Shown here piece after piece: positions 2,321 to 44,856 of a stretch of DNA of 64,000 nt (position 1 is the stretch's first letter; every line of letters begins with the position of its first letter). Location of the stretch: NCBI GenBank assembly GCA_039714075.1, contig JBDLKA010000004.1, positions 3,087-67,086 of the forward strand. Direction: 5' to 3'. The notes under the pieces were generated by a model. It did not search any database and was not told the DNA's origin. It saw only the letters and a program-made list of their open reading frames with translations. Position numbers and translations under genes: made by a program. The stretch is from Candidatus Krumholzibacteriota bacterium. Its GTDB lineage: Bacteria; Krumholzibacteriota; Krumholzibacteriia; LZORAL124-64-63.

Positions 2321-2327
2321 GCTCCTA

Positions 2328-3714: not shown

Positions 3715-4125
3715 ATGACCACGATCTCGAGCAAAATCCCCCGCGAAACCCTGCGCGGTTACCTCTTCATCGTCTTGGCCGCCTTCTGCTGGGGCGGCAT
3801 CGGCCCGGTGTCCCGTTACGCGTTCGCCCAGGGCCTGGCGCCGTTCGTCCGGATCGAATTTCCCGCGCCACGGGCCCTGCTGGCGGTGATCTTTCTCGCG
3901 GTGATCTCCACCTTCGCCGCCTACTCCCTGAACTACGCGGGACTCAAGCGGCTGGAATCCTCACGCGCGGCGACCGTGGCCACCATAGAACCGGTCATCG
4001 CCGGAGCGGCGGCCTGGGTCTGGTGGGGGGAGACCTTCACTTTCTGGGGTTACCTGGGCAGCGGGCTGATTCTGCTGGGTGTGCTGCTGCTGATTACGTC
4101 TTCCTCAAAGGAAGGCGCAAGTTAG
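3715..4125 (+). CDS. EamA/DMT-family small membrane protein (136 aa), possibly a truncated remnant
   Basis: The N-terminus resembles EamA TM1 (LFIVLAAFCWGGIGPVSRYAF) and the C-terminus matches the end of an EamA domain (ATVATIEPVIAGAAAWVWWGETFTFWGYLGSGLILLGVLLL). The middle is too short for a canonical 10-TM DMT protein. Confidence 0.45.
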   Translation: MTTISSKIPRETLRGYLFIVLAAFCWGGIGPVSRYAFAQGLAPFVRIEFPAPRALLAVIFLAVISTFAAYSLNYAGLKRLESSRAATVATIEPVIAGAAAWVWWGETFTFWGYLGSGLILLGVLLLITSSSKEGAS

Positions 4126-6405: not shown

Positions 6406-6680
6406 GGTGGGATATTCCCTTTCTTGGATATAATTTCTCCTATATAACACCTGGATTATCTTATCATTAATGAAAGATTGATGTCAAATGGATGCCATAG
6501 TTCATCAATTCCTCAAAAAGCTCCACCTGTTGCCGTCCCCAGGCAATTTTCCTGGCCGAAACACAGGTCACAATTCCAATGCCACAACCAATTCCTTGAA
6601 ATCCCCTCCCCGAAATGGGAGAATGATTTTTCGAAATCAGACTCGCCCATTCTGCCCCATATCATCCAAGGAGAACCCTC

Positions 6681-8648
6681 ATGATCGTCGGCGTCATCGG
6701 TTCCGGCTCCATCGGCCCGGACCTGGCCTATGGTTTTGTCTCCGCCCTGGCCAGCCACCCGGACAGCCGTGTCCTCCTTCACGACATCAAACCCGACGCC
6801 TTGGAGGCCGGCCTGGCCCGCATCCAGGGCTACGTGAAAAAGGGTGTCGATCGTGGCAAGCTCAGTCCCAAGGTGGCCGCGGCCATCGGTGACAAACTGG
6901 TCACGACGCTGGACCTTCCCGACCTGGCCGATTGCGATTACGTGCTCGAGGCCGCCACCGAGGATCTGGGGATCAAGAAGATCATCCTGGGCAACCTGGA
7001 AAAAGTCGTGCGGCCCGACTGCCTGATCGGCTTCGCCACCAGCGGCCTGCCGCGCGCGGTGATCGCCGCGGACACGAAACACCCCGAGCGCTGCTTCGTG
7101 AACCACCCCTTCTTTCCCGCCTGGCGCGCCATGCCCATCGAAGTCGTGCTGTCGGACCACGCCGAGTACAGCGAGCGCATGCTGACGACCTTGAAGCATC
7201 TTGGCAAAGTGCCGGTGATCACCGCCGACGTGCCGTGCTTCGCCGCCGACGACATCTTCTGCAACTACTGCGCCGAGGCCGCGCGCATCCACGTCGAAGG
7301 CGTGGCGTCGGTGTGGCAGGTGGACAAGATCGTCAACGACGCCATCGGCGGCGGTGGTCCCTTCAACGTCATGGACCTGACCCGCGGCAACCTGCTGAAC
7401 GTCAAATGCCTGAAGCTGATGGAAGAAGCCGAGACGGGCAGCGAATGGTTCGCCCCGCCCGAGGTCTTCTCCACCCAGGCCAACAATCCCTGGCTCGACC
7501 ACAAGAACCCCGGTGACCCGTCGTACAGCCCCGAACTGGGCCAGCAGGTGCTGGACCGCATCCTGGCCGTGCTATTGGGACGAACCTATTTCGTGGCCGA
7601 CAACGATATCTGCGACCCGGCGGACCTGAACTGGCTGACGAGCAACGCCCTCGGTTTCAGCAAGGGGCTGCTGGATCTGGCGGCCGAACTGGGCGCCGAC
7701 CGCGTGCACGAGATCTGCACCACCTACGCGGCCGCCAACCCCGGTTTCGAGGTGCCCAAAAGCATTAGCGACCGGGTGCTGCTGGATTTCAAGCGCAACC
7801 TGCAGATCGAGAAGGATGACACCATCGCCACGGTGACCATCAAGCGTCCCGAGGTGTTGAACGCGCTGAACGACCAGACCATGAACGAGTTGAACGCCAC
7901 CTTTGACGAACTGGAAGCCGACAACACGGTGGCCGGCATCGTGGTCACCAGTTACGGCGGCTCGCTGGCGGGCGCCGACATCAACGAACTGGCCGCCCTG
8001 CCCACGCCCGAAGAGGCGGCCGACAAGTGCCGCCGCGGGCACAAGATTCTGCGCCGGATCGAGAACTGCGCCAAGCCGGTGGTCATCGCCGTGAACGGTC
8101 CGGTGCTGGGCGGCGGCGCTGAACTGTCCATGGCCTGCCACGCGCGGGTCGTGGGCCCGGGCCTGATGCTTGGTCAGCCCGAAGTGAACCTGGGGATCAT
8201 CCCGGGTTACGGCGGCACCCAGCGGCTGCCCCGCCTGATCGGGGTGGAAAAAGCCGCGGAAATGGTGCGGACCGCCAATACCATCGGCGCCAAGGACGCC
8301 TGCGCCCTGGGTTGGGCGGTCGGTGAGCCCGCGACCTCTCCAGTCGCGGCGGCCAAGGATGTGATCAAGGCCCACCTGGACGGGTCGGCGCCCATCAAGC
8401 GTCTGGACACCGGACCCATGAAAGTGCCTGCAACATTGCCGGCCGTCGACATCGGCCACCGTTCCCTGGCCATCGACCGCATCCTGACCGATACCCTGTT
8501 CGCCGGACTGAAAACCGACCTGGACAGCGGTCTGGAGCTCGAAGCCGTGGCCTTCGCCCGCTGCAAGGGGACCGTCGATTACGACATCGGCATGACCAAT
8601 TTCATCCAGAACGGACCCCGGGTGCCCGCGGTCTTCATGAACGAATAA
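6681..8648 (+). CDS. Fused 3-hydroxyacyl-CoA dehydrogenase (N-terminal) / enoyl-CoA hydratase (C-terminal) bifunctional protein, 655 aa
   Basis: An N-terminal Rossmann motif VIGSGSIGPDLA (3HCDH family) and a C-terminal crotonase fold (VIAVNGPVLGGGAELSMACHARV). The domain order is the reverse of FadB/FadJ and matches the archaeal Hbd-Crt fusion type. Confidence 0.9.
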   Translation: MIVGVIGSGSIGPDLAYGFVSALASHPDSRVLLHDIKPDALEAGLARIQGYVKKGVDRGKLSPKVAAAIGDKLVTTLDLPDLADCDYVLEAATEDLGIKKIILGNLEKVVRPDCLIGFATSGLPRAVIAADTKHPERCFVNHPFFPAWRAMPIEVVLSDHAEYSERMLTTLKHLGKVPVITADVPCFAADDIFCNYCAEAARIHVEGVASVWQVDKIVNDAIGGGGPFNVMDLTRGNLLNVKCLKLMEEAETGSEWFAPPEVFSTQANNPWLDHKNPGDPSYSPELGQQVLDRILAVLLGRTYFVADNDICDPADLNWLTSNALGFSKGLLDLAAELGADRVHEICTTYAAANPGFEVPKSISDRVLLDFKRNLQIEKDDTIATVTIKRPEVLNALNDQTMNELNATFDELEADNTVAGIVVTSYGGSLAGADINELAALPTPEEAADKCRRGHKILRRIENCAKPVVIAVNGPVLGGGAELSMACHARVVGPGLMLGQPEVNLGIIPGYGGTQRLPRLIGVEKAAEMVRTANTIGAKDACALGWAVGEPATSPVAAAKDVIKAHLDGSAPIKRLDTGPMKVPATLPAVDIGHRSLAIDRILTDTLFAGLKTDLDSGLELEAVAFARCKGTVDYDIGMTNFIQNGPRVPAVFMNE

Positions 8649-8661
8649 ACGGGAGACGAGC

Positions 8662-9945
8662 ATGACCACGAACAGCAAATCCATCGTCATCCTGGACGGC
8701 GCGCGCCGGACGCCGAGGGCCGACATCCTGATCAACAACCGCGAACCCGGTCTGTTCTCGCGCTTTGCGACCACCGCCCTGGGCGGCATGGCCATCAGGG
8801 CCACCCTGAAAAATACGCCGCTGGACAAGGGATTGATCGGCCACGTCATCATGGGGATGGCCTCGCACAGCCATCGCGACAGCATCTACGCGGCCCAGGG
8901 CATGGCCTGGCGCGGCGGCCTGGCCGACGACGTGCCCGCCCTGACGGTGGCCCGCATCTGCGGCAGCGGCGCCGAAGCGGTGGCCGTGGGCATGGAGCAT
9001 ATCCTGGCCGGTATCCGGCACGACCGTGACCGGCCGTTCCTGGTTGTCGGCGGCGGCGAGAGCATGCAGTACCCCTTCAGCGTTTACGGCATGCGCGGCC
9101 AGAAAGTGGGTACGGCGATCCAGAAGTACGGACCGCTGGACCCGCGTGGTCTGCCCCGGGGGTCCATGCTTCAGGATTCCCTGTTGCTGGGCCTTTATGA
9201 TCCGGGCGCCAGCCTGGCCATGGCCAATACCGCCGAAGAACTGGGGCGGCGTTACGAAATCACCCGCGAAGAGGCCGACGCCTTCGGCCATCGCTCGCAC
9301 ATGAATGCCAAGGCTGCCCGTGACGAAGGATTGTTCGCCGAGGAGATCGAGCCGGTCACCCTGCCCGGCAGCGGCGGCGAGGCCGACGTCGTGGTCGAAC
9401 ACGACACCCATATCATGGACAACATCAGCCTGGCCAAGATGAGCCGCTTGTACCCGGCCTTCGAGGCGGGCGGCATCATCACCGCAGGCAACGCCAGCGC
9501 CGTGGTCGACGGCGCGGCGGCCATGGTGCTGGGCCTCGAGGACGATGCCAAGGCACACGGCCTGAAACCTTTGGCCCGGGTGGTCGCTGTCGGCACGGCG
9601 GCCTGCGATCCGCGGATCATGGGCTGGGGTCCGGTTCCAGCGACGCGCATCGCCCTGGAAAAGGCCGGCCTGGCCGGAAGCGACATCGACCACGTCGAAT
9701 TGAACGAAGCCTTCGCGCCCCAGGCCCTGGCCTGCATACGGGACTTTGCCGACATGGGCATCGATCCGGAGAAGGTCAACCCGCAGGGCAACGCCATCGC
9801 GCTGGGCCATCCCCTGGGCGCGACCGGAGCCATCCTGACCCTGACCTGCGCCTACGCCCTGCGGCGCAAGGGCCAACGCTACGGTCTGGTCACGATGTGC
9901 ATCGGCGGGGGGCAGGGAAATTCGCTGGTCATCGAGTCCTTGTAG
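8662..9945 (+). CDS. Acetyl-CoA C-acyltransferase (thiolase)
   Basis: Thiolase signatures: VARICGSGAEAV (active Cys), NEAFAPQALAC, GHPLGATG, and CIGGGQG near the C-terminus. Lies 13 nt downstream of the dehydrogenase/hydratase gene. Confidence 0.92.
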   Translation: MTTNSKSIVILDGARRTPRADILINNREPGLFSRFATTALGGMAIRATLKNTPLDKGLIGHVIMGMASHSHRDSIYAAQGMAWRGGLADDVPALTVARICGSGAEAVAVGMEHILAGIRHDRDRPFLVVGGGESMQYPFSVYGMRGQKVGTAIQKYGPLDPRGLPRGSMLQDSLLLGLYDPGASLAMANTAEELGRRYEITREEADAFGHRSHMNAKAARDEGLFAEEIEPVTLPGSGGEADVVVEHDTHIMDNISLAKMSRLYPAFEAGGIITAGNASAVVDGAAAMVLGLEDDAKAHGLKPLARVVAVGTAACDPRIMGWGPVPATRIALEKAGLAGSDIDHVELNEAFAPQALACIRDFADMGIDPEKVNPQGNAIALGHPLGATGAILTLTCAYALRRKGQRYGLVTMCIGGGQGNSLVIESL

Positions 9946-9978
9946 TCAGTAAACATCAACCTGTGAAAGTCGGTCGCC

Positions 9979-10395
9979 ATGTCCTTGTCCTACCATTGCC
10001 CCAATTGCGACAGCCTGCTGAATCCCAACGTGCGCGTGGTGCTCATCGCCCGCTACGGTGAAAAACAGGGCATCGTCCTTATGAGTTCGAAGCCCGGGGA
10101 CTACCAGGTCATCTGCGACAAGGGCTTGTGTCACGACGTGGCCAAAGGGGATGTCGTCGATTTCAGCTGCCCGGTCTGCCACGGGTCGCTGACCTCGGAG
10201 TCCCATGACCACTTTGCCGAACTCAAGGTCGTGAACTCGCAAAAGGAAGGGCACGAACCCTGCCTGCTGCGCTTCAGCCGGGTCAGCGAAGAGCATGCGA
10301 CGTTCCTGTACGACGGGGACTCGGTGAAGGAGTTCGGGGAAGAGGCGGGACTTTTCAGTAAAGAGATGACGATCGAAGGGGACTGGGGCTGGTAG
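9979..10395 (+). CDS. Small Cys-rich hypothetical protein (two CxxC pairs, Zn-ribbon-like), 138 aa
   Basis: CPNC at residues 7-10 and CPVCH at 64-68. Same strand as, and 33 nt downstream of, the thiolase gene. No recognisable family. Confidence 0.5.
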   Translation: MSLSYHCPNCDSLLNPNVRVVLIARYGEKQGIVLMSSKPGDYQVICDKGLCHDVAKGDVVDFSCPVCHGSLTSESHDHFAELKVVNSQKEGHEPCLLRFSRVSEEHATFLYDGDSVKEFGEEAGLFSKEMTIEGDWGW

Positions 10396-12732
<2,337 letters not shown>

Positions 12733-12836
12733 GGTTTGCCTCTCTGGTGTTGCCCGACACCGTCCCACGATAGTCCGGGAGAGAAACAAAAACAACCGTC
12801 AGCTGCGGCCCTTTGTCCGGCTTTGTCCACATTCTC

Positions 12837-12865
12837 ATTGACATTCGGCTCCCGTTTTTCTAGAA
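12837..12865 (+). promoter_or_regulatory. Sigma70-like promoter TTGACA-N17-TAGAAT, plus operator-like palindromes, upstream of the Bcr-like operon
   Basis: A -35 TTGACA and a -10 TAGAAT separated by a 17-nt spacer. A 10-bp palindrome CGAACGTTCG lies just downstream (~12872..12881). An 8-bp inverted repeat TAGTTGAA-gtt-TTCAACTA (~12906..12924) abuts the start codon. A direct repeat CTTTGTCC-gg-CTTTGTCC (~12811..12828) lies upstream of the -35. Coordinates are +/- 2 nt. Confidence 0.4.
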
Positions 12866-12925
12866 TGTATTTCGAACGTTCGTTCTAAATACACAACTTG
12901 TTGTAATAGTTGAAGTTTTCAACTA

Positions 12926-14119
12926 ATGACAAAGGATTCTCCCGTGACCCCTTCCCCCCGCACCCAGATCGTCGACTGGGCCACCGAAATCTACGAAGAC
13001 CTGGATTTCACCGCGTCCCGGCAGTGGCTGGACGACCACCCGGGCAGCAAGGCCGCCGGGTTCCTGCCCGTCTACGCCCCCAAGGAGATCATCCATGCCG
13101 CGGGCATGCTGCCGGTGGGCATCCACGGCAACGGGGCCATCGAGATCATCCGCGGCGACGCCTACTACCAGAGCTATATCTGCCATCTGCCCCGGTCGGT
13201 GGTCGAATTCGCGGAATCCGGCCGCCTGGATTTCCTGTCGGCGGCCTTGTTTCCCTCGACCTGCGACGTGATCCGCAACCTGTCCGGCATGTGGCAGGTC
13301 ATGTTCCCGGAGATGTACGTGCGCTACCTCGACCTGCCCCAGGTGGCGGATCCGGAACTCGGCGCCAGGTTCTGGCAGCGGGAACTGAACGTGATCCGGG
13401 AGGAACTGGGCCGCGTGGCCGATGTGAACATCACCGATGACCGGCTGCGGGCGTCGGTCGCGGTGTACAACGAGGTGCGCGAGGTCATCGGCCAGTTATA
13501 TGGCCTGCGCAACAAGCAACCCTGGAAGGTGCCCACCGAAGAATTATACCTGCTGCTGCGGGCAGGGGAAGTCGTGGCGCCGGAAGTCTTCATGGAGAAG
13601 GCCCGCGCCTACCTGCAGGCCGCCGAAAACAGCGACGATCCCCTCAAGGACCGCACCCGGGTGATCATCGTGGGCTCGTTCTGCGAACAGCCGCCCCTCG
13701 GGCTGATCAAGACCATCGAACGCGCCGGCTGCTACATCGTCGACGACGATTTCCTGGCCGGTAACCGCTTCCTTACCAACGCCGTGCCCGTCGCAGGTGA
13801 TCCCGCGGAAAACCTGGCCACTACGTTCACCAGCAGCGCCGTCAAGACCTCGGTCCTGTACGAACCGGATCCCGACGGCAAGAAGAACCTGATGCAGCAG
13901 CGCGCCAAGGCCGCCGGCGCCGACGGCATCATTTTCTGCGCCGCCAGTTTCTGCGATCCCGCCCTGCTGGACAGGCCCATGCTGCGCGACGGGGCCGAAC
14001 AGGCCGGCATCCCCTGCATCGCCTTCAAGTTCGCCGAGAACTCGGGGCAGTTCCAGCAGTTCCGCGAGCAGGCGGGCACCTTCAGCGATTCGATCAAACT
14101 GTGGGGAGAGGCGTCATGA
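12926..14119 (+). CDS. Benzoyl-CoA reductase / 2-hydroxyacyl-CoA dehydratase family subunit, BcrC/BadD/HgdB-like (397 aa)
   Basis: First gene of a 4-gene cluster with sizes 397/437/426/290 aa, matching BcrC/B/A/D. C-terminal Cys-containing motifs. The stop overlaps the next start (ATGA). An alternative GTG start lies 18 nt downstream, after AAGGA. Confidence 0.8.
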   Translation: MTKDSPVTPSPRTQIVDWATEIYEDLDFTASRQWLDDHPGSKAAGFLPVYAPKEIIHAAGMLPVGIHGNGAIEIIRGDAYYQSYICHLPRSVVEFAESGRLDFLSAALFPSTCDVIRNLSGMWQVMFPEMYVRYLDLPQVADPELGARFWQRELNVIREELGRVADVNITDDRLRASVAVYNEVREVIGQLYGLRNKQPWKVPTEELYLLLRAGEVVAPEVFMEKARAYLQAAENSDDPLKDRTRVIIVGSFCEQPPLGLIKTIERAGCYIVDDDFLAGNRFLTNAVPVAGDPAENLATTFTSSAVKTSVLYEPDPDGKKNLMQQRAKAAGADGIIFCAASFCDPALLDRPMLRDGAEQAGIPCIAFKFAENSGQFQQFREQAGTFSDSIKLWGEAS

Positions 14120-15426
14120 GCGACCAGAAAACAGACATCCGCCAGGCCCAGAAGGACGATTCGATGATCATCCAGAAAGAGATGATCGCCGAGCACTACA
14201 AGCGGCTCGAGCGGGCGCCCGAAACCAAGGAACCGGTGGTCTACACCTTCGTGCCCGGCAACCTGACCGAGCTCATCCGCTCGTTCGGCTGCCTGCCCGT
14301 GCTGCCGGAGATCAACGCCCTGCAGTCGGGCATGCGGGGAAAAAGCCGCGAATATATCGCCGAAGCCGAAAAGCGCGGGCACTCCGAGGACGTCTGCACC
14401 TACGTCAAGTGCGACATCGGCATGGCCATGGCGGGCAACATCGGCCCCACCGGCACCAAGCTGCCCAAGCCCGACCTGCTGCTGCTCTCGTACACCGGCT
14501 GCTACACCTTCATGAAATGGTTCGAACTGCTGCGCGAGGAATACGATTGCCCCTGTGTTTTCCTGCACGTGCCCTACCAGGGCGAAGGCAACATCGAACC
14601 CGAGCACCGGGACTACATGATCAAGCAGATCAAGGAAGAGGTCATTCCCGCGCTGGAGAAAATATCCGGCCGCAAGTACGACGAGGATGCCCTGAAGGAG
14701 CGACTGCGGTTGAGCGTGCAGGCCGAGGACGATCTGGTCTGGGTGCTGCAGTCCGCCATGAAAAAACCCTCGCCCATCGACGCCTACTTCGGCGCCGTGT
14801 ATTACGTGGGTCCGATCTTCAGCGCCTTCCGCGGCACCGAAGAAGGCGTCAATTATTACCAGGCGCTGCGCCGCGAAGTGCAGGGACGCCTGGATGCCGG
14901 GCTGGGTCCGGTCGCTCCCAAGGGTCCCATGGCCGAGGAGAAATACCGCCTGGTGGTCGAAGGCCCGCCCAACTGGACGCACTTCCGCGAGTTCTGGCAG
15001 ATGTTCGCCGACGAGGGCGCGGTGGTGGTGGCCTCGACCTACAGCAAGGTCGGCGGCACCTACGATTTCGGTTTCCGGCACAACCCGGATGACCCCCTGG
15101 GCACCATGGGCGACTACTGCGCCGGCTGCTACACCAACCACAACCTGCCCGGCCGCATCGACATGCTGTGCCAGTACCTGAAGGATTACGAGGCTGACGG
15201 GTTTTTGATCAACTCCGTCAAGTCGTGCAACTCGTTCAGCGCCGGCCAGTTGATGATCCTGCGCGAGGTCGAGAAACGCACCGGCCTGCCGGGCGGTTTC
15301 ATCGAATCGGACCTTGTTGATCCGCGCTACTTCTCGGCCGCCAACATCAAGAATCGCCTGGAGAGTTACCTGCAGATGGTCGAAGCCCGCCGCGCCGGCG
15401 CTTCGCAGAAAGGCCTGTCCGCATGA
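14116..15426 (+). CDS. Benzoyl-CoA reductase / 2-hydroxyacyl-CoA dehydratase family subunit, BcrB/BadE/HgdA-like (437 aa)
   Basis: The ORF runs 14101..15426. An ATG at 14116 overlaps the upstream stop. Paralogous to 2328..3572. Conserved Cys-rich stretches ([33 protein letters not shown]). 4-nt overlap with the next gene. Confidence 0.8.
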
Positions 15427-16703
15427 GCATCGCCTGTGTTGTCGGGACGGACCTCGGTTCGACCACCACCAAGTCGGTCATCCTCGATGGTGACGGAAAC
15501 ATTCTCGGGCGCGGCATCACCAACAGCCGCTCCGATTACGATCGCGCGGCCAAGGTCTCGCGCAGCGAAGCCTTCATCACCGCGCGCTTCAACCTGCTCC
15601 AGCGCGAGGTTGAACAGGCCGCCGGACCCGAGGTGCTTCAGCGTCTACTGGACGCCTTCCGGCTCGAGCAGACCCTCGCCCAGCTCGACCGGTTGCACCA
15701 ACTTGTGTCCGGCGCCCTGGCCTTCGGCGTGCCCGGTGACCTGAGCGTCGCGGCCACCGAAGCCGTGAAAACCATCGTCACCCGTATCCAGCAAAGCGAA
15801 CTGAAACGTTTCGAGGATCCTAATCCGCCCAAGCGCTCGGACTTCTTCCGCGACACCGTGGGTTCGGCCTGGAGCACCATCAGCGAAGAGATCGGCGATC
15901 CGGCGGGCGTTAGCTTCGACATGCTGCTCGGCCTGTACGACAAGTGCATCATCCAGGTCGAGAACGAACCGCTGGCCCTGGGCTTCGGCGATCATATCGA
16001 AAACGCCCTGGAGCGCATCGGCGGTTCCGAAGCCGTCAAGACCGGGGTGCGCCACGCCGTCGAGGCCGAATTCGACGTGCGCGGGGAAGTGGGCACCGGT
16101 TACGGCCGGCAGCGCCTGCCCTTCCCCAAGGAGATGATCCGTTCGGAAATCCTCTGCCACGGCCTGGGCGCTTCGATCATGTTCGGCGGCACCCGCACCG
16201 TGCTGGACATCGGCGGCCAGGACACCAAGGCCATTCAGGTCGACGAGAACGGCATCGTGACCAGCTTCCAGATGAACGACCGGTGCGCCGCCGGTTGCGG
16301 ACGGTACCTGGGCTACATCGCCGACGAGATGAACCTCGGGCTGCACGAACTGGGACCTTTGGCCCAGGAAAGCACCCGCACGGTGAAGATCAACTCCACC
16401 TGCACCGTTTTCGCCGGGGCCGAACTGCGCGAGCGCCTGTCCCTGGGCGAAAAACGCGAGGACATCCTGGCCGGCCTGCACCGCGCGATCATGCTGCGGG
16501 CCATGAGCCTGCTGGCCCGCTCGGGCGGCGTCGAGGACGAGTTCACCTTCACCGGCGGCGTGGCCAACAATCCGGCCGCGGTGTCGGCTCTGCGCGAACT
16601 GGTGACCGAAAACTACGGGGACAAGGTTCTGAACATTTCCCCGGACAGCATCTACACCGGCGCCCTGGGCGGCGCCATTTTCGCCCACAGGAGCGCGAAC
16701 TGA
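15423..16703 (+). CDS. BcrA/BadF-like ATPase subunit (long BadF/BadG/BcrA/BcrD-family ATPase with an insertion, 426 aa)
   Basis: N-terminal [17 protein letters not shown] and a second half carrying CAAGCGRYL and TGGVANN. Its length, insertion and position match the alpha subunit of class-I benzoyl-CoA reductases. Confidence 0.85.
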
Positions 16704-17575
16704 TGAGTACCGAAAACACTACCAAAACAGCAACGGTCACCGCCGGCCTGGACGTCGGCTCGGGTGCGGTCAAGGCCGTGGTCATGGGGTTCGAAGACGG
16801 CCGCGAAGAACTGCTGTCCAAGGTCAGCACCCGGATCCGCCGCCGGGACATCAATGATGTCGTTGACGAGGTCTTCGGCCAGGCGGTCGCCGAAGCCGGC
16901 GTCGATGGTCTGAACTACGTGGCCACCACCGGTGAAGGCGAGGACATTCCCTTCGCCACGGGCCACTTCTACGGCATGACCACCCATGCGCGCGGCGCGC
17001 TTTTTCTCGATCCGCGCGCCAACGCCGTGCTGGACGCCGGCGCCCTGCACGCCCGGGCCATGGCCATGGACAACCGGGGCAAGGTCCTGAACTACAAGAT
17101 GACCAGTCAGTGCGCGTCCGGCTCCGGACAGTTCCTGGAGAACATCGCCCGCTATCTGGGGGTCTCCCAGGCCGAGATCGGCGACCTTTCCCTGGCCGCG
17201 GACAACCCGGAAAAGTGCAGCGGCATCTGCGCCGTGCTGGCCGAGACCGACGTGATCAACATGGTCTCGCGCGGCATCAGCACCGAGAATATCCTGCGCG
17301 GAATTCATGAAAGCATGTCCGGGCGCTTCGTGCGCCTGCTGCGCTCGCTGGACTACGGCGAAGTGATTTTCGTCAGTGGCGGCCTGGCCGGTGATGTGGG
17401 TCTGGTCAAGTCGTTGGCTGACGAATTCGCCGGGCTGAAAAGCCTGAAGGGGCCCGTGCCCGAGATCGCCACCCACCCGGACAGTATTTTCGCCGGGGCG
17501 ATCGGGGCGGCCATCTGGGGGAATTTCCGGCATGGCAAGCTGGGGCTGGAAGGGTTTGCCTGGCAGGCGGCCTGA
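16703..17575 (+). CDS. BcrD/BadG-like ATPase subunit (short BadF/BadG/BcrA/BcrD-family ATPase, 290 aa)
   Basis: The ATG at 16703 overlaps the upstream stop (TGATGA). The track lists it only within the over-extended ORF 15944..17575. GLDVGSGAVKAVV and CASGSGQFLE motifs. Confidence 0.8.
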   Translation: MSTENTTKTATVTAGLDVGSGAVKAVVMGFEDGREELLSKVSTRIRRRDINDVVDEVFGQAVAEAGVDGLNYVATTGEGEDIPFATGHFYGMTTHARGALFLDPRANAVLDAGALHARAMAMDNRGKVLNYKMTSQCASGSGQFLENIARYLGVSQAEIGDLSLAADNPEKCSGICAVLAETDVINMVSRGISTENILRGIHESMSGRFVRLLRSLDYGEVIFVSGGLAGDVGLVKSLADEFAGLKSLKGPVPEIATHPDSIFAGAIGAAIWGNFRHGKLGLEGFAWQAA

Positions 17576-17686
17576 GTCTCTCGAGCCACTCCCACCCGAT
17601 ATCTTGAATTATCCCTCCCGCCGCTGTTCAGGAAGGATAGGCCCCGGATTTCTGCGGGGCCGTCACCCGAAAAAGGGAGGGATTCC

Positions 17687-17977
17687 ATGAAAAATAGAAT
17701 CCTCAGTCCATGGTTGTTGGCCGTGATGATCGCCACGCTTGCCGCGGGAACCGCTCTCGCTGACATCCCGGATGGCGATGAGCACCCCTGGGACAGCGAG
17801 TCCACAGACCCTGTTCTCGAGGGGGACGAGCATCCCTGGGACAGCGAGTCCACCGATCCAGGTATCGAGGGAGACGAGGGTCCCTGGGACGCCGATTCTG
17901 CCGGAACGCTGGATGCGGCCTCGGCGGAAGCGCTGTTGTTTGCGGAGCAGTTAGCCGAGTTGGCACAGTTGCCGTAG
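17687..17977 (+). CDS. Small secreted acidic tandem-repeat protein (96 aa; signal peptide plus GDEHPWDSESTDP repeats)
   Basis: Strong RBS AGGGAGGGA. Signal peptide MKNRILSPWLLAVMIATLAAGTALA. Two near-identical 13-aa repeats plus a degenerate third (39-nt DNA tandem repeat). Followed by an intrinsic terminator. Confidence 0.6.
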   Translation: MKNRILSPWLLAVMIATLAAGTALADIPDGDEHPWDSESTDPVLEGDEHPWDSESTDPGIEGDEGPWDADSAGTLDAASAEALLFAEQLAELAQLP

Positions 17978-18004
17978 GTACCGGTCAGGCAACCATGACG
18001 AGTG

Positions 18005-18036
18005 GAGCCCCGAGTGCAAACCCGGGGCTCTTTTTT
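18005..18036 (+). terminator. Rho-independent terminator (8-bp GC stem GAGCCCCG/CGGGGCTC followed by T6)
   Basis: Hairpin gagccccg-agtgcaaacc-cggggctc followed by tttttt, located 28 nt after the stop of the small secreted protein gene. Confidence 0.55.
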
Positions 18037-18071
18037 CCGGCCGGACGCAAACGAAAACTTCACGGCCGGGT

Positions 18072-20762
18072 CTACTTCTCGAGCGTGAGCAGATAGATGT
18101 CGCCGTCGTCCGTGTCCTGGGTGTAGACGATTCGCGTGCCGTCGTGCGACCAACCGCCGTTGTGGACGTGCCACCGGCCCTGGCCGTTTGTAATCCGTTC
18201 GAGGTCACCTACAGGTTTGGGCAAGCCGGACCCGGAGGCCGGGACCTCCAGTTCGAGCACGAACAGTCCCTGGTCGAAGTGGCTGGCCGATTTCACCAGG
18301 GCGAGGGAACCGCCGTCCGGCGCCAGGATCATTTCCGTGTGGGGTCCGGTAAAGAGCAGGACTTCCTCACCTGTCTGAAGATTGGCGGCCCGCAGTTCCA
18401 TCTTGTCGCCGGCCATGGTGCTATACACGATGCGATTGCGGTCCAGATACCAGTCGAAACGCAGGACCCCGGGAAATACGGACTTCGCCTTGGTGTCGCC
18501 GTGACGATCTGTCATCCACAGGGATGTTCCCCCGATATCAGGCAGTACGTATCCGATCGACTTGCCGTCCGGCGTCCAGCGGATGCTGAGGCTTACCGCC
18601 CAGACAACGCTGGGAATTGATATGTCCCGGATCGAGAGGTGCTCGGGAGGCCCGCTTCCGTCGGCTTTGGCGATCCAGATATCCGTGGGCCCGTCCCGGT
18701 TGGAGAGGTAGGCAATCTCCTCGCCGTCCGGTGACCAGGCCGGGAGTATGTCCATGGACGGATGTTTGGACAGGTTCAGTTCCTCGTGGGTCTCAAGGTC
18801 CACGATCCAGATTTCCTCGTTTCCGGTCCGGGTCGACTGGTAAGCGATACGATCTCCCCCGGGAGCATATCGTCCGACGAAGTTGTCGGCGGTCCAGGAG
18901 GTCAGCTGTTCGGACTCGCCGGTCGAGACGTCCACCGTGTACAGGTCCGTCTGATGGCTCCACCGCGTGTAGACGACAAGTCCGTGGGAAGAAACACTGG
19001 GATACCAGTCCTTTCCGCCGCCGAAGGTAAGCTGGCTCAACTCCCCCGAGTCCACGTGGATACCCCAGATATTCTCCATCCCACTTCTGTTGGACCCGAA
19101 GATGACGTACTGATCTCCGAGCAGAAACGAGGGGTCCATGTTTGCGAATTCGTCCGCCAGGAGTTCGTGTTCCTCCCCACCCGGAACCGATATCAGGAAC
19201 AATCTCGATGTTCCCGCGTGGGATCGTGTAAACACAATCCACTTGCCGTCGAAAGAGAAGCTCCCACTCAGGTCACGAGCGCCTGTCGGGGGAAAGGTGA
19301 CCTGCTTTTCGTCCCTGGTCTCGAGGTCCACCTTAAAAATCGCCACATCACCGTTATCCAAAATCCGGGAATACAGCAGACTCTTGTCCCCCGGAGCCCA
19401 AGGCATGGATCCGAGCAACCGCACCGCGTCCCAAAAATCGTTCAGGTAGGGAACCCGGGTCTCGACCAGTTTGGTCGATTTGCCTCCCAGGGGCGAGATC
19501 GTGAAGATATCACAATAAATCCCATCCCCCCCCAGATAGGCGATCTGGTTCCCGTCGCGGGACCAGCGCGGCAGATCCTCGTCTCCGGGATCATCGGTCA
19601 GACGCAACTTTTGTCCGCCAAGGCGCGATTGCATGTACAGGTCCATCGTCCCGTGTTCAGTGTGGCCGTAGGCGATGAATTCCGAGTTGGGCGACAGATT
19701 TCCCGAGAATTCAGGGCCTCGGGCAAAGGTGATGCGATCTGTTCCACCCGGAGAAAGCTTCCCGCCCGATTCCCAGGGCTGCATGACCAAGAGTGAAAGG
19801 GCGGCGGCGATGACCACCACAACGGCAACCAACCACGCCGTGCGAGCCGAACCCGGCTTTTGATCGCGTTGTTTCTGTTGGGCAGGGGCGGTGAATCCGG
19901 AATCGCGTTTGAGCATCTTGAGGTCGGCCCGGATTCCGGCCGCGCTCTGATAGCGCAGTTCGGGATCCTTCTCGAGGGCCTTGTTGACGATGCGCTGCAA
20001 CTCGGCCGGAACCTTCCGGTTGAGCTTCACCGGCGCCGTCGGGGCCCGATTCAGGATCGCATCGAACATGGCCGCGGACGTGTTCCCCGCGAAGGCGCGC
20101 CGCGCCGTGATCATCTCGTACAGAACCACTCCCAAAGAGAAAATGTCGGTCCGGTGGTCGAGGCCCTTTCCCAGCGCCTGCTCCGGCGACATGTACGACA
20201 CGGTGCCAACCACCGCCCCCGGATTGGTCATGTCCAAGGCGGTCATGGTTGCGCCATCGAGTCCCGGCTCCTGTTCCGTGTCGGGAGCGAGCTTGGCCAG
20301 CCCGAAATCCAGCACCTTGGCCTGGCCCCGGTCGGTAACGAAGATGTTGGCCGTCTTGATGTCCCGATGAATGATCCCCTTGGCGTGAGCGGCGTCCAGC
20401 GCATCGGCGATCTGGAGGGTGAGATCGACCGCTGACTCGATCGCCAGGGGTTGGCCGCCGATGTGTTGCTGAAGGGCCTGCCCCTCCAGCAGTTCCATGA
20501 CGATGAACCGCCTGCCTTCCCACTCGCCGATGTCGTAAATGGAGCAGATGTGGGGGTGGTTCATCGCCGAAGCGGCGCGGGCCTCGCGAATGTGACGATC
20601 GACATTCTGTGGTTTCGTGGCCACCTCGTCGGGAACGAATTTCATGGCGACGTTGCGCCCAAGACGCGTGTCCTGGGCCTTCCACACCACACCCATCCCG
20701 CCTTCGCCGATCTTCTCGATCAGGCGGTAGTGCTGTATGGTTTGACCAGACTGGATATTCAC
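18072..20762 (-). CDS. Eukaryotic-like Ser/Thr protein kinase with a single TM and a periplasmic TolB-like tandem beta-propeller (WD40/PD40 repeats), 896 aa
   Basis: GTG start directly abutting the upstream stop (TAGGTG). Hanks kinase motifs [33 protein letters not shown] after ~residue 300. C-terminal PD40-like repeats. Confidence 0.9.
19880..20762. repeat. Direct repeat copy A (5' kinase-domain coding region of the tandem Ser/Thr kinase genes)
   Basis: Matches 22181..23063 at a constant offset of 2301 nt. The spurious ORFs 20451.., 20609.. and 19981..20370 reappear near-identically at 22752.., 22910.. and 22282..22671. The 5'-most ~470 nt (20292..20762) appear identical, and identity decays towards the 3' side. 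Confidence 0.8.
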
Positions 20763-23093
20763 CTACTCGTCCCCCTTGTGTTCCGCCAAACCCTTCAATC
20801 CCGCCATCTCAAGCCCCTCCATCAGGTGGTCGGTCAAAGCGACCGTCATGGCGTGACGTTCAATCAATTCCCCGCGAATCTCACCGACAGGCCGAGCCCA
20901 CAGCGTGAGCATCTCGTCCAGCGCTGGCCCAGCATCCCCGGAACGGCCGAGTTGCCCGTAGGTTGCGGCAAGATAAAGCGGGCCGCGAAAGTCACCGCCA
21001 CCCAAATCAACATCCCTCAATTCAGTCAGGGCCTGTTCGTGTCGCCCGTGTCGATAGTGGTCCAGGAAAAAGGGCGTCCTTATCCAGCCAGGGGGATTCG
21101 GATCAAGTTCGATCGCTCTGCGCACCATCGGCAGGCTGTGTTCGAAGTCCTCCAACTGGGCAAGGAAGAACCCGAACATGGCCAACCACATGGTGTCGTT
21201 CGGGTTCAGGTCGATCGTCCGGTAAGCTTCGATCTTGGCGCGTTCATAATCCCCGCTGGTGAAATGGGTGAGAGCCATGGCTCCGTGGGCCACATGGTTC
21301 CCCGTGTCGAGCCGTACCGCCTTTTCGGCAAGCTCCAGCGCCCGTTCGAGAGCATCATATTCGTCCGAACGCTCGTTCCAGCGATGGTGGGTTTCCTCGG
21401 CATATATGTAGGCCAGCCAGGCCAGGCCGTCAGCGTAGTCGGAGTCGTCTCCGATCACACGTTCCAGGCAATTACGCGCCGCCAGATGATTTTCCGGTGT
21501 GTGTACATGCAGGTATTCGTACGTCCGCAGGACGCAATCATAACTGTCCAGACTCGCCGGAGGTTTACGTCTGGAACCGGGCAGTCCCGCCCTGGTCAGG
21601 GCTCCGTACGATCCGGCGATCGCGCTGACGACCTGTTGCGTCAACTCGTCCTGCAGCTCGAAAAGATTGGCTACCGTCAGATCACGCTCGTAGTTCGTTC
21701 CCCATATCAACCGCCTGTCGCCGGAATCGGAGAGCTGGACATTGACCTTGACCTGATTCCCTGCTTTGCGGACGCTTCCCTTCAACAGATAACGATTTAC
21801 AGGCAGGGTACCGGCCCGGCCAAGGTCTTCATCGCGATCCTCGTAGCTTTCCGTCGAACTGTGGGCGATCACGGTCAGCCTGCTGTAGCGAGAGAGCTCC
21901 GTGACGATATCCACGGTCAGTCCTTCGCTGAAGTACTTCTGATCCGTATCCCCACTGGCATTGGTGAAGGGCAGAATGTCGATCGTCGGACCTCTCGAAG
22001 AGGTCTGTTGGACACCTGCGTCAATCCCCTTTTCTGGAGCAGTGTCTGCCGGGGTTGCGTCTCGCCCGGACAGCCCCTTCAGCAGAATCACCGCCACCAC
22101 CGCGGTCAGCAACACCCCGGCCACTCCCCACAGGCCCACTCGGAGCCGGTCCGGGCCGGCAGCAACCGGTGGCGGGGTCACGGCGGTCATGCCTGCGGAC
22201 GAGTCCCGCTGCATTCGCTTCAGATCGCTCCGCAGTTCGGCTGTGCTCTGGTAGCGCAGCTCGGGATCCTTCTCGAGAGCCTTGTTGACGATGCGCTGCA
22301 ACTCGGGCGGGACCTCCCGGTTGAGCTCCACCGGCGCCGTCGGCGCCCGGTTTAGGATAGCGTCGAACATGGCCGCGGACGTGTTCCCCGCGAAGGGGCG
22401 CCGCGCCGTGACCATCTCGTACAGAACCACGCCCAAAGAGAAAATGTCGGTCCGGTTGTCGAGGTCCTTACCCAAGGCCTGCTCCGGTGACATGTACGAC
22501 ACCGTGCCCACCACCGCCCCCGGAGTCGTCATGTCGAGCGCGGTCATGGTGGCATCGTCGAGTCCCGGCTCCGGCGTTGCTCCGGACGCGAGCTTGGCCA
22601 GCCCGAAATCCAGCACCTTGGCCTGGCCCCGGTCGGTAACGAAGATATTGGCCGTCTTGATGTCCCGATGAATGATCCCCTTGGCGTGAGCGGCGTCCAG
22701 CGCATCGGCGATCTGGAGGGTGAGATCGACCGCTGACTCGATCGCCAGGGGTTGGCCGCCGATGTGTTGCTGAAGGGCCTGCCCCTCCAGCAGTTCCATG
22801 ACGATGAACCGCCTGCCTTCCCACTCGCCGATGTCGTAAATGGAGCAGATGTGGGGGTGGTTCATCGCCGAAGCGGCGCGGGCCTCGCGAATGTGACGAT
22901 CGACATTCTGTGGTTTCGTGGCCACCTCGTCGGGAACGAATTTCATGGCGACGTTGCGCCCAAGACGCGTGTCCTGGGCCTTCCACACCACACCCATCCC
23001 GCCTTCGCCGATCTTCTCGATCAGGCGGTAGTGCTGTATGGTTTGACCAGACTGGATGGACACGAATTTTCTCCCCCTGGTCGTCCCGACCAT
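20763..23093 (-). CDS. Eukaryotic-like Ser/Thr protein kinase with a single TM and a periplasmic TolB-N-like plus TPR-like sensor domain, 776 aa (or 766 aa from the GTG at 23063)
   Basis: The kinase domain is identical to the downstream paralogue over its first ~157 aa. The periplasmic part shows an [17 protein letters not shown] motif followed by TPR-like helices. A GGGGGAG RBS precedes the GTG at 23063. Confidence 0.9.
22181..23063. repeat. Direct repeat copy B (5' kinase-domain coding region of the tandem Ser/Thr kinase genes)
   Basis: See copy A. Includes the RBS region, and divergence begins immediately upstream of the start codons. Confidence 0.8.
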
Positions 23094-23272
23094 CCCAGAG
23101 CATGATATTCCGCTCGAAAGTGGTATTTCGAGCTCGATTCATATCATATCATACTAATATGTATTTGTTAAGAAAGGGGCGCTATGCACTCCGACTGGCC
23201 GATTTGAGACATTTTTGATATTAATTGGTGGGTTCCAGGCGTTACCGCTCATTCCTGAATTCTGGAGACCCT

Positions 23273-25972
23273 ATGCAATCCGGTCAAACCCTTGCGCACT
23301 TCACCCTCGTGGAAAAGATCGGCTCCGGAGGGATGGGTGAAGTCTACCGCGCCACCGACGCCAAGCTGGGCCGGGACGTGGCCCTCAAGATCCTTCCCTC
23401 CGAATTGAGCGGCGACCCCGAGCGCGAAACCCGCTTTCATCGGGAAGCCCGCGCCCTGGCCAGCCTTCAGCATCCCAACGTGGCCTCGGTGTACGGTTTT
23501 GAAGAAGTGGACGGGATCCGCTTTCTGGTCATGGAACTGATTTCGGGCTCGGAACTAACCGTACGGATGAAAGAAGGTCCCATCCCGGTCGAGGAAACCC
23601 TGGACATCGCCCGCCAGATTGCCGCGGGCCTGGAGGCCGCCCACGAAAACGGCATCGTTCATCGTGACCTCAAACCGGCCAACATCATGGAAACCGAAGA
23701 CGGCGAAGTGAAAATCCTGGATTTCGGATTGGCCCAGGCCTGGTTCGGCGAGGACGACACCCAGCATGAGTCCGCCACGTCCCCGACCATGACCGCGGCC
23801 ATGACCCAGGCCGGCGCCATCCTGGGTACGGCGGCCTACATGAGCCCCGAGCAGGCCAGGGGCGCGGGTGTCGATCGGCGCACCGACATCTGGGCTTTCG
23901 GAGCGATCCTTTTTGAAATGCTGACCGGCAAGCAGCTCTTCAAGGGCGAAACCATCAGCGACACCCTGGCGGCCGTTCTCCGCAAGGAACCCGCCTGGGA
24001 TTCCCTGCCCGTAGACGAAGCTCCCGAGCTTTGCCGGTTGATCGAACGTTGCCTGGAGCGCAATCCCAAGCAGCGTCTGCGCGACATCGGCGAGGCCCGC
24101 ATCTTTCTGCAGGACGGCGGGGCCAGCATATCCAATTTTAGTTTTTCCCAGCTGGGCATGGACGCGGCGCCGGCGGAGTCCGCGCGCGCGAAAACCCCGG
24201 TTCCCCTGTTGGCGATTCTGGCTCTGGTATGCTTGTCGGTTGGCACGGTCCTGGGATGGAAGATTGTCGCCCAACCGAAGCCCGCTCCCCTGCTGCACAC
24301 CATGATCCCCGCGCCCAAGGATGCTGATTTCGATCTCAGGAGCCCGGCCCCGGGTCCGGCCGCAATCTCTCCTGACGGGACCAAGATGGCCTTTACGGCC
24401 GTGGATGAATCGGGAACCTCCCAGCTGCATCTGCGACACCTGGACAAGGGCGAGTCGGTCGTTCTGTCGGGCACCGTGGGCTCGGCCTACCCCTTCTGGT
24501 CACCCGACAGCGAGTTCATCGGGTTCTTCGAGCCCAATGCGGGGAAACTCAAGAAGGTGGCGGCGGCCGGCGGGCCCCCCGTCACCTTGTGCACCGCGCC
24601 CAACGGCAAAGGGGGATCCTGGAACAGCCGGGGAGAAATCATCTTTGCTCCCAATCACAACGGCGGGATCTTCAAGGTCCCGGACATCGGGGGGGCGCCT
24701 GTCCAATTGACGACCCTGGACCCGGACCATGATTCCCACCGGCACCCCCGCTTCCTTCCTGGGGGCACAAATTTTATTTTCACCGGTCGCGCCCTTAGCG
24801 GAAACATCAACAGCATATTCCTGGCCTCAACGGACACGGCCATTGCACCTAGAATAATTTCCGAATCGCAGACCAATGGGGACTTTGTCAACGGCAACCT
24901 GCTGACTGTCCATGAGGGCGTTTTGATGGCCACTCCGTTTACACCGGACCAGGAGAAGGTGACCGCGGGTGCGACCCCGTTGGTGGAAAACATCCTGAAT
25001 ATTCAGGGAGCCGCGGTATCTGTTTTCAGCCCCTCACCGACGGGCATGCTTGTCTTTCAGACGGGAGTCTCCATCAATGTGGGACAAATCATTTCCTGGG
25101 TGGAAATCGAAAAGGGGGTCGTGGAACCTCTAGGTGAACCCGGTCAGGTTTTTCATCCCTTTATTTCCCCGGACGGGAGTCAGGCTCTGCTTGAAGTGCG
25201 CAATGCGTCCAATGAAGGTACGGACCTGTGGCTTTTGGATCTGGCCACGGGTTTGCGGACACGGTTCACGTTTGCCGCGGGCGACGAAAAACGCCCCTGC
25301 TGGTCGCGTACAGGAAAAGACGTGTTCTACGAATCAGTTGAAAACAACTCCTTCCGGATCATGCAGCAACCGGTGGAGGGACAGGGCGGCGCCGCCATCA
25401 TTCTTGAATCCGACCGGGAAATCGCGCCTTCCAGCGTGGATCCCGAAGACAAGTTCCTATTGGTCGATTTCGAACGGGAGGACGGCAATTTTGAACTCCG
25501 CCGGATCACCCTGGAGCCCGGTCTGGACGAAATGGTCACCCTGGCCACTGCGCCTGACGCCAATCTGGGCGGTGGTGAGTATTCGCCGGACGGTCGCTGG
25601 ATCGCCTATCACACCGAAAGCGCTTCCGGATGGGATATCTTCGTGATCGCGGCCGAAGGTGGAGCGCGCAAGTGGCAGGTGACAACCGACGGTGCTGTAT
25701 ATCCCAAATGGGCAACAGGCGGAACGGAATTGTGGGTCAGCACATTCAGCGGAGATCTGCGCGTGTATTCCGTGGACGGTACCGGGCAGACCTTCCGCGT
25801 GGGGAACTTTATCCAGACCCCGATTAACATCGGCCCGGGCCCGAGTGGCAGTTTCTATGACCTGCACCCCGACGGCTTGCGGGTTCTCCAGACCGGAATG
25901 GATCCGGCTTTCCGTTCCGAAGTGTCCCATCTTCACCTGGTCACGGATTGGAAACGGGGGCTTGCCCAATAG
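23273..25972 (+). CDS. Eukaryotic-like Ser/Thr protein kinase with a single TM and a periplasmic TolB-like beta-propeller, ~900 aa
   Basis: The ORF runs 23225..25972 from a TTG. The likely ATG start is at 23273 (MQSGQTLAHF, aligning with the paralogue starts). Motifs GSGGMGEVYRA, HRDLKPANIM, DFGLAQ. Divergent from the tandem kinase pair, about 50% identical in the kinase domain. Confidence 0.9.
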   Translation: MQSGQTLAHFTLVEKIGSGGMGEVYRATDAKLGRDVALKILPSELSGDPERETRFHREARALASLQHPNVASVYGFEEVDGIRFLVMELISGSELTVRMKEGPIPVEETLDIARQIAAGLEAAHENGIVHRDLKPANIMETEDGEVKILDFGLAQAWFGEDDTQHESATSPTMTAAMTQAGAILGTAAYMSPEQARGAGVDRRTDIWAFGAILFEMLTGKQLFKGETISDTLAAVLRKEPAWDSLPVDEAPELCRLIERCLERNPKQRLRDIGEARIFLQDGGASISNFSFSQLGMDAAPAESARAKTPVPLLAILALVCLSVGTVLGWKIVAQPKPAPLLHTMIPAPKDADFDLRSPAPGPAAISPDGTKMAFTAVDESGTSQLHLRHLDKGESVVLSGTVGSAYPFWSPDSEFIGFFEPNAGKLKKVAAAGGPPVTLCTAPNGKGGSWNSRGEIIFAPNHNGGIFKVPDIGGAPVQLTTLDPDHDSHRHPRFLPGGTNFIFTGRALSGNINSIFLASTDTAIAPRIISESQTNGDFVNGNLLTVHEGVLMATPFTPDQEKVTAGATPLVENILNIQGAAVSVFSPSPTGMLVFQTGVSINVGQIISWVEIEKGVVEPLGEPGQVFHPFISPDGSQALLEVRNASNEGTDLWLLDLATGLRTRFTFAAGDEKRPCWSRTGKDVFYESVENNSFRIMQQPVEGQGGAAIILESDREIAPSSVDPEDKFLLVDFEREDGNFELRRITLEPGLDEMVTLATAPDANLGGGEYSPDGRWIAYHTESASGWDIFVIAAEGGARKWQVTTDGAVYPKWATGGTELWVSTFSGDLRVYSVDGTGQTFRVGNFIQTPINIGPGPSGSFYDLHPDGLRVLQTGMDPAFRSEVSHLHLVTDWKRGLAQ

Positions 25973-28254: not shown

Positions 28255-28464
28255 GGACCGCTACGTGCGGCCCATCAAGGGTGATGGCGACGAAATTAAT
28301 ACCCCGTTAAATGAATAACAAATAAAATGAAAGTTAAATTTCTGTTGGGTGTATTTTCTGGTTCCATAGGCAAATACGGAAATTGCTGGTGGGCAAACCG
28401 CCGGTTGGAAGGCTCCCCTGCATCGGTTATTATTACCAAGCATTTCTCCCGAACCGGAGTTCTC

Positions 28465-44620: not shown

Positions 44621-44856
44621 GGTCAACCCCCGAACAATTTGAATGGAATATGAAGCAGAACCCGATGTTGCCAAACCGAAGGGTGATTATACCTCATATC
44701 CTACCGAAAGTAAATGAGTTGGAAGGGAAAACCCGATTGATATTTCCGGCTGGAACTCGAGACATGGACTTGCCGGCAGACCCGGTTTATAGTTAAATTG
44801 GATCTTTTTACTCTTGGTTGTCCGGTTTTCAGAACACCTTCCCAAGGAGACGAACA

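Follow-up and report, generated by a model that had tools for sequence, protein, structure and literature searches.

A probable bcrCBAD operon for a Thauera-type class I benzoyl-CoA reductase, preceded by a conserved promoter and operator-like palindrome, in Candidatus Krumholzibacteriota

What do four tightly overlapping genes encode in a 64,000-nucleotide stretch of DNA from a Candidatus Krumholzibacteriota bacterium (contig JBDLKA010000004.1; the whole stretch is referred to here as the window)? A first-pass annotation, made from the letters alone, had placed at 12926-17575 two catalytic subunits of the HgdAB/BcrBC family and two distinct ATPases, one of them long with an insertion, and had read the set as a class I aryl-CoA reductase of the Bcr/Bad type and not as a 2-hydroxyacyl-CoA dehydratase. 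Comparing these genes with characterized enzymes and with related genomes, we find that they are very probably a bcrCBAD operon. Its product would be a class I benzoyl-CoA reductase (BCR) of the BCR (Thauera) type, a heterotetramer that depends on ATP to abolish the aromaticity of benzoyl-CoA. All four lie on the plus strand at the expected positions. The first gene, bcrC (12926-14119), would supply the electron-transfer subunit of the catalytic dimer; it encodes 397 amino acids (aa) from an ATG at 12926 or, more probably, 391 aa from a GTG at 12944; we favor the GTG because it follows an AAGGA Shine-Dalgarno-like motif, and both motif and start are kept in the closest relatives (loci L009 and L005 of our comparison). 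The second gene, bcrB (14116-15426), would supply the catalytic subunit that binds the substrate; it encodes 436 aa counted from its ATG, one fewer than first reported, or 441 aa from an alternative GTG at 14101. It is followed by bcrA (15423-16703; 426 aa), the long ATPase subunit, and by bcrD (16703-17575; 290 aa), the short one. The junctions overlap by ATGA between bcrC and bcrB (4 nt), ATGA between bcrB and bcrA (4 nt) and TGATG between bcrA and bcrD (1 nt), so that the four genes are translationally coupled.

Family assignment was made with Pfam and with the NCBIfam equivalog models for the C, B, A and D subunits (TIGR02263, TIGR02260, TIGR02259 and TIGR02261, respectively) and for the bzd-type enzymes (TIGR03190-03192). 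Pfam finds the HGD-D domain in BcrC (E = 3e-66) and BcrB (E = 6e-62) and the BcrAD_BadFG domain in BcrA (E = 2e-73) and BcrD (E = 4e-54). Since the same domains make up 2-hydroxyacyl-CoA dehydratases, these matches would also fit an enzyme like HgdAB, HadBC or FldBC with two activator genes, in which ATP would serve catalytically only and a single electron would be recycled; HadB and HadC are moreover the second-best PDB relatives. The equivalog models separate the two families. BcrC passes its model with 484 bits (cut-off 421), BcrB with 678.5 bits (cut-off 486.6) and BcrD with 354.1 bits (cut-off 312.9), whereas the dehydratase models fail by a wide distance (HadB, 166.4 bits against 750; HadC, 165.7 bits against 700). 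The bzd-type models fail as well, with 84.5, 71 and 139 bits against cut-offs of 454, 449 and 380. In known 2-hydroxyacyl-CoA dehydratases, the activator is a homodimer of one protein of about 260 aa. BcrA and BcrD are instead only 30% identical over about 205 aa and thus are not duplicates of one another. In addition, residues 8-56 and 222-424 of BcrA align with MbdQ, a short ATPase; because MbdQ matches only these flanking segments, we place an insertion of about 165 aa, specific to BcrA, at residues 57-221. A separate module of the dehydratase kind, a lone HadB-like protein with a 261-aa activase, does occur in the window at 1535-3572. With HMM scores (hidden Markov models), ATPases and catalytic subunits all pointing to the BCR type, the dehydratase explanation is effectively refuted, and we give it next to no weight.

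Sequence identity and phylogeny lead to the same family. We compared BcrB and BcrC with the Thauera aromatica, Mbd and Bzd subunits provided as Source Data by Fuchs et al. 2025 (PMC11971306); the two ATPase subunits were placed solely through HMMs and PDB relatives. BcrB is 65.6% identical to BcrB of T. aromatica K172 over 418 aa and BcrC is 52.9% identical to its T. aromatica counterpart over 380 aa, compared with 30-31% identity to MbdO and MbdN (MBR, or methylbenzoyl-CoA reductase, type) and 23-26% identity to BzdO and BzdN (BZD type). The Thauera type is the closest. In a neighbor-joining tree, the BcrB of the window falls in a tight environmental clade whose members share 74-95% identity. 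This clade is the sister of T. aromatica BcrB, and MbdO, BzdO and the lone HGD-D protein of the window all branch outside. In public annotation, the homologs are already labeled "benzoyl-CoA reductase subunit B".

The residues that carry out the chemistry are also in place. In the BzdNO crystal structure, the active-site [4Fe-4S]-OH2 cluster of BzdO is ligated by Cys95, Cys128 and Cys380, Glu65 is the proton donor and Tyr97 and Tyr298 touch the thioester (PMC11971306). In the window BcrB, Cys94, Cys129 and Cys371 align with the three cluster ligands, and Glu65, Tyr96 and Tyr309 align with the catalytic glutamate and tyrosines; the T. aromatica residues align at each of these positions too. More broadly, 13 of the 14 BzdO active-site positions that we inspected are the same in the window BcrB as in T. 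aromatica BcrB, including a phenylalanine in place of BzdO His131. BcrC holds cysteines at 86, 113, 253, 269 and 343, which are all of the cysteines common to T. aromatica BcrC and MbdN. Each ATPase carries a pair of cysteines in motifs that align with MbdQ: Cys288 (in NDRCAAG) and Cys327 (in STCTVFA) in BcrA, and Cys137 (in SQCASG) and Cys176 (in GICAVLA) in BcrD. The two-cysteine motif of the activator HgdC provides the ligands of a bridging cluster.

What, then, is the substrate? The first-pass annotation had called it unknown, which overstates the case, as the pathway context of the orthologs is informative; the substrate nevertheless stays a prediction. Orthologs at 74-80% BcrB identity sit among benzoyl-CoA pathway genes. 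For instance, a Krumholzibacteriota locus (L027) has a gene directly upstream of bcrC whose product passes the Oah equivalog model (581 bits against 464), and a deltaproteobacterial locus (L062) has the order had (421 bits against 339), oah (538 against 464), a dch-like gene and bcrCBAD. In Gemmatimonadota, the operon continues after bcrD with genes for a 4-hydroxybenzoyl-CoA-reductase-like protein, a TetR regulator, a thiolase and a BadI/Oah-like hydrolase. Such a context favors benzoyl-CoA as the clade's physiological substrate.

Several observations weigh against this assignment. First, BcrA scores 551.7 bits with TIGR02259, slightly below the cut-off of 578, although the match is strong (E = 1e-165), covers model positions 2-432 of 432 and is followed by a next-best model at 179 bits. 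BcrA orthologs score 552-570 bits with the same model, and one of these is from a canonical had-oah-dch-bcrCBAD locus; we therefore attribute the shortfall to a divergence of the whole clade and not to another family or function. Second, only 3 of the 6 double-cubane ligands of BzdN (Cys36/73/100/263/293/327) align with a cysteine in BcrC, so that sequence does not fix its cluster type; T. aromatica BcrC likewise has 3 of the 6. Third, the window lacks much of the pathway. A six-frame search of all 64 kb for the ferredoxin motif CxxCxxCxxxC[PGA] returned nothing, in agreement with the earlier remark that no ferredoxin gene follows bcrD, and no benzoate-CoA ligase or other AMP-forming ligase and no dch, had or oah was found in the window. 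Fourth, the beta-oxidation genes adjacent to the cluster, described below, offer no specific support because the same unit exists without bcr. Finally, the BcrB proteins of the environmental clade are 62-66% identical to T. aromatica BcrB. This last distance, together with the missing ligase, would also fit a class I aryl-CoA reductase specialized for a substituted or other aromatic CoA ester, for example a benzoyl-CoA that bears a methyl, hydroxy, halo or amino group. The one inspected pocket position that differs (Phe318 in the window, Gln316 in Thauera) could be read in the same way, and the 4-hydroxybenzoyl-CoA-reductase-like gene in Gemmatimonadota suggests that aromatic inputs are varied. 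However, the dedicated methylbenzoyl-CoA enzyme is the 30-31% identical MBR type, the orthologs adjoin Oah, Had and Dch, which act on the unsubstituted ring, and the remainder of the inspected active site is that of T. aromatica. The Thauera enzyme itself accepts many substrate analogs, and specialization is therefore unnecessary to explain growth on substituted benzoates. We consider such a specialized reductase unlikely.

Based on the BzdNO structure and on the biochemistry of T. aromatica, from which the mechanism is borrowed, we propose how a benzoyl-CoA reductase encoded by these genes would work. BcrA and BcrD would form an ATPase dimer with one bridging [4Fe-4S] cluster, to which BcrA would contribute Cys288 and Cys327, and BcrD Cys137 and Cys176. 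A reduced low-potential donor, presumably a ferredoxin encoded elsewhere in the genome, would load one electron onto this cluster, and hydrolysis of MgATP, at a presumed one ATP per electron, would push the electron to the Fe-S cluster of BcrC. From there it would move on to BcrB and its [4Fe-4S]-OH2 cluster, for which the three aligned cysteines are the ligands. The cluster-bound water would then give a hydrogen atom to C4 of benzoyl-CoA, and a second electron together with a proton from Glu65 would yield cyclohexa-1,5-diene-1-carbonyl-CoA. Dch, Had and Oah, encoded outside the window, would lead on to 3-hydroxypimeloyl-CoA.

Comparison with characterized systems places the window cluster nearest to BcrCBAD of T. 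aromatica K172. The two share the gene order C-B-A-D, similar sizes of BcrC and BcrB (386 and 432 aa in T. aromatica, 391-397 and 436 aa here), the catalytic cysteines, glutamate and tyrosines, the phenylalanine at the BzdO His131 position and the long BcrA insertion. Unlike T. aromatica, the window has no ferredoxin gene after bcrD and no flanking had, oah or dch, its regulatory site is a palindrome that resembles a PaaR box, and its BcrA falls slightly under the equivalog cut-off. MbdONQP (MBR type; PDB 9g87, 9gai) has the same four-subunit class I architecture and the cysteine pattern of BcrC and BcrB, and is the best solved-structure relative of BcrB, BcrC and BcrA, but its MbdQ lacks the BcrA insertion and identity is at the 30-31% level already given. 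The top structural match of BcrD is also MbdQ, nearly tied with the HadI activator (4eht). BzdNOPQ of Aromatoleum sp. CIB (PDB 8s02) shares the three cysteines, Glu65, Tyr97 and Tyr298, and its mechanism is presumably the same; it differs in the [8Fe-9S] ligands of BzdN, half of which are matched in the window BcrC, and in His131 of BzdO, which is phenylalanine here. HadBC with HadI (PDB 3o3m, 4eht) belongs to the same superfamily of radical enzymes, BCR/HAD (benzoyl-CoA reductase/2-hydroxyacyl-CoA dehydratase); its Pfam domains are shared, and three cysteines hold its [4Fe-4S] cluster. It has a single homodimeric activator in contrast to the two different ATPases of the window cluster, and HadBC catalyzes a dehydration with catalytic ATP and not a reduction driven by stoichiometric ATP (PMC11971306).

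We next turn to the DNA upstream of bcrC, which contains a sigma-70-like promoter at 12838-12866 on the plus strand (TTGACA, a 17-nt spacer and TAGAAT; 11 of 12 consensus positions). It is the sole promoter-like site that we found in 12600-18100. Directly 3' of the -10 box is a palindrome at 12866-12893, with arms TGTATTTCGAACG and CGTTCTAAATACA, that we interpret as a putative operator. Its core, TCGAACGTTCGTTC, at 12872-12885, lies in a 13-nt inverted repeat that is 92% complementary, and it has a single non-coding match within the 64 kb window. The arrangement is conserved. Promoter and palindrome (TCGAACGnnCGTTCGA) recur at 35 related loci (among L001-L017, L020, L023, L024, L027 and L038-L081), which belong to Krumholzibacteriota, Planctomycetota, Acidobacteriota and Gemmatimonadota. 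In these 35, out of 73 related loci with enough upstream sequence, the exact core lies 1210-1304 bp upstream from where bcrB starts, and a -35 element (TTGAC) and a -10 element rich in A/T are kept at the same place. Loci without the palindrome are mostly those where other genes, for example dch, precede bcrC.

The palindrome resembles the box CNAACGNNCGTTNG that is recognized by PaaR, a phenylacetyl-CoA-responsive repressor of the TetR family (PMC6651687). The Gemmatimonadota bcr clusters encode a TetR-family protein, to which NCBIfam gives no specific name, and we found no homolog of it in the 64 kb window or in the Krumholzibacteriota loci. By analogy with PaaR, it is reasonable to suppose that a repressor bound to the palindrome would be released by an aryl-CoA. 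Transcription of the operon would start at its own sigma-70-like promoter, and the palindrome, which overlaps the start site, would probably mediate its repression. This promoter-operator provides a concrete handle on the regulation of the operon and possibly a marker for its horizontal spread.

How is this operon distributed, and does the host keep it for a function? A scan that took one genome per GTDB species yielded 245 relatives. Those nearest to the window, with BcrB proteins 93-95% identical, include metagenome-assembled genomes (MAGs) of Candidatus Krumholzibacteriota, a member of the FCB (Fibrobacterota-Chlorobiota-Bacteroidota) group, and a further set at 74-84% BcrB identity belongs to Gemmatimonadota, Acidobacteriota, Eisenbacteria, Planctomycetota, Myxococcota and proteobacterial MAGs. 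At the DNA level, the window is about 77-82% identical to the best loci over the bcr genes and somewhat lower over the flanking blocks; given this identity, the window represents a different species or genus of the same lineage. A tblastn search with BcrB against 72,556 plasmids returned only distant relatives below 25% identity; this search yielded no close annotated relative among cultured organisms. The BcrB tree ignores phylum boundaries, and the unit of promoter, operator and bcrCBAD recurs in four phyla, which suggests horizontal transfer. One might therefore view the operon as a recently acquired, unexpressed or decaying remnant of such a transfer with no role in the host, and a hybrid histidine kinase gene inserted at 10396-12795, which parts the cluster from its usual neighbors, could be taken as a sign of disruption. 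The state of the operon argues otherwise: the four open reading frames (ORFs) are intact with coupled junctions and conserved ligands, promoter and operator are intact, and the GC content at third codon positions is high and typical of the host (0.79-0.86 in 3 of the 4 bcr genes). In addition, at least 10 related MAGs, at about 80% DNA identity, show the cluster in synteny, which implies that selection has maintained it by vertical descent. A functionless remnant is thus very improbable.

Genes of this kind have been described in the same phylum. The first-pass annotation had assumed a lineage in which such reductases are poorly characterized, which does not hold: bcrABCD in Krumholzibacteriota was described by Campbell et al. 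(mBio 2024; PMC10936416), who found all four subunits in 12 of 40 MAGs and, in 11-13 of the 40, a route to 3-hydroxypimeloyl-CoA that is complete or lacks at most one gene. Their MAGs include the vent and lake sets closest to the window (Dive96 hydrothermal-vent and lake), which share its synteny and have BcrB proteins 89-95% identical to that of the window. The window differs in having insertions of a hybrid histidine kinase gene and an LVIVD gene, and no exact protein match is on record. Beyond this phylum, class I BCR genes have been reported in MAGs of Zixibacteria, Acidobacteriota and Desulfobacterota (PMC11704145), and benzoyl-CoA degradation genes have been noted in Gemmatimonadota (PMC10581226). 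The window cluster is therefore already known at the genomic level and adds one more genome to a published pattern.

Upstream of the bcr operon is a second set of genes for CoA-ester metabolism. On the minus strand, an ADP-forming acyl-CoA synthetase (1-1563; cut by the window start), an activase (1535-2320; 261 aa) and the HadB-like HGD-D protein (2328-3572; 414 aa) form a module that has no HadC- or BcrC-like partner for the lone HGD-D protein. This protein keeps the three cysteines as well as Glu63, Tyr94 and Tyr301, and it passes no equivalog model, with scores far below the cut-offs (HadB, 225 bits against 750; BcrB, 153 against 487). We considered its conserved glutamate as a means to discriminate a reductase from a dehydratase and rejected it, as HadB also has a glutamate. 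The lone HGD-D family is very large and has generic names only. Its operon recurrently has the order HGD-D, activase, synthetase and often a sodium/solute symporter family (SSF) transporter, and is usually divergent from genes for a fused 3-hydroxyacyl-CoA dehydrogenase/enoyl-CoA hydratase and a thiolase. This divergon is found beside BCR genes in Krumholzibacteriota, Eisenbacteria (L019), Sulfomarinibacter (L074) and a deltaproteobacterial genome (L086), and without BCR genes at four other loci (L085, L088-L090).

In the window, the divergent arm lies on the plus strand and comprises the fused dehydrogenase/hydratase (6681-8648; 655 aa) and the thiolase (8662-9945; 427 aa), both identified by Pfam and NCBIfam, followed by a 138-aa protein (9979-10395) with CPNC...CPVC knuckles of the Zn-ribbon or rubredoxin-like type that matches no Pfam or NCBIfam model. 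The genes at 6681-10395 are syntenic with bcrCBAD in Krumholzibacteriota relatives, and the 138-aa gene is kept between the thiolase and the bcr promoter in Krumholzibacteriota-like loci (L001-L003, L005, L008-L010, L012 and L013). The fusion and thiolase were examined as a candidate lower benzoyl-CoA pathway. This idea is weakened by two comparisons: both proteins are 66-74% identical to orthologs that are paired with the lone HGD-D module in loci devoid of bcr, and the fusion next to bcrC in Gemmatimonadota, Acidobacteriota and Planctomycetota, at about 700 aa, shares only 34% identity with the window fusion. One could still propose that bcrCBAD of Krumholzibacteriota and allied uncultured phyla serves a variant benzoyl-CoA pathway, marked by the lack of nearby ferredoxin, dch, had and oah genes, by a PaaR-box-like operator shared across phyla and by the divergon that repeatedly occurs beside bcr. 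In such a pathway, the divergon would process intermediates derived from the ring and recover the ATP spent on ring reduction by substrate-level phosphorylation, and the lone HadB-like protein would represent a homomeric form new to the BCR/HAD family. We regard this proposal as unlikely.

Relative to the syntenic loci, the window has insertions of its own. An EamA fragment (3715-4125) and an LVIVD-repeat protein with an FlgD_ig tail (4156-6450, minus strand) split the HGD-D gene from the fusion gene, and the hybrid PAS histidine kinase/receiver (minus strand) sits between the 138-aa gene and the bcr promoter. In one close relative (L005, a Krumholzibacteriota MAG), the space between the 138-aa gene and bcrC is instead occupied at 4986-6997 by genes for TtrB/DsrO-like and NrfD/DsrP-like components of a respiratory complex, which hints at an anaerobic respiratory option in a host of class I BCR.

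On the 3' side, bcrD is followed by an ORF at 17687-17977 that encodes 96 aa with a signal-peptide-like N-terminus and acidic GDEHPWDSESTDP repeats. It fits the earlier description of a small secreted repeat protein and has no match in a Pfam search. Beyond it, three large Ser/Thr protein kinase genes stand in a row (18072-20762 and 20763-23093 on the minus strand, 23225-25972 on the plus strand). The N-terminal kinase domains of the first two are nearly identical and are fused to PD40/TolB-like or TPR-like (tetratricopeptide repeat) C-terminal regions. Next is a gene for an SSF/ActP-like transporter (26054-27925, minus strand), which adjoins a sensor of the Cache-PAS-DUF294 nucleotidyltransferase type (28327-30528, plus strand). 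This is a second SSF gene; in relatives, a different one comes after the acyl-CoA synthetase gene.

The wider window agrees with the genomic context that had been described for the cluster. The ADP-forming synthetase and the ActP-like transporter are both present. C-terminal Por_Secre_tail domains, found on two proteins of the minus strand (49298-51376 and 55630-56574), and FlgD_ig tails, found on three (4156-6450, 33874-35778 and 43193-44674, also minus strand), bear out a cargo context for the type IX secretion system. The host had been thought to bear this system and to be probably non-proteobacterial, and the nearest genomes, which are Krumholzibacteriota MAGs of the FCB group, are in keeping with that view.

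Two elements of this locus may repay further work: the promoter-operator, and the module of a lone HadB-like protein, an activase and an ADP-forming synthetase, which represents a very large unnamed family. For the benzoyl-CoA reductases themselves, the window leaves unchanged a pattern in which class I enzymes are widespread in uncultured anaerobic phyla, including Krumholzibacteriota, Gemmatimonadota, Acidobacteriota and Zixibacteria, and not in the denitrifying Proteobacteria alone. This spread matters for the anoxic turnover of aromatics that stem from lignin and coal.

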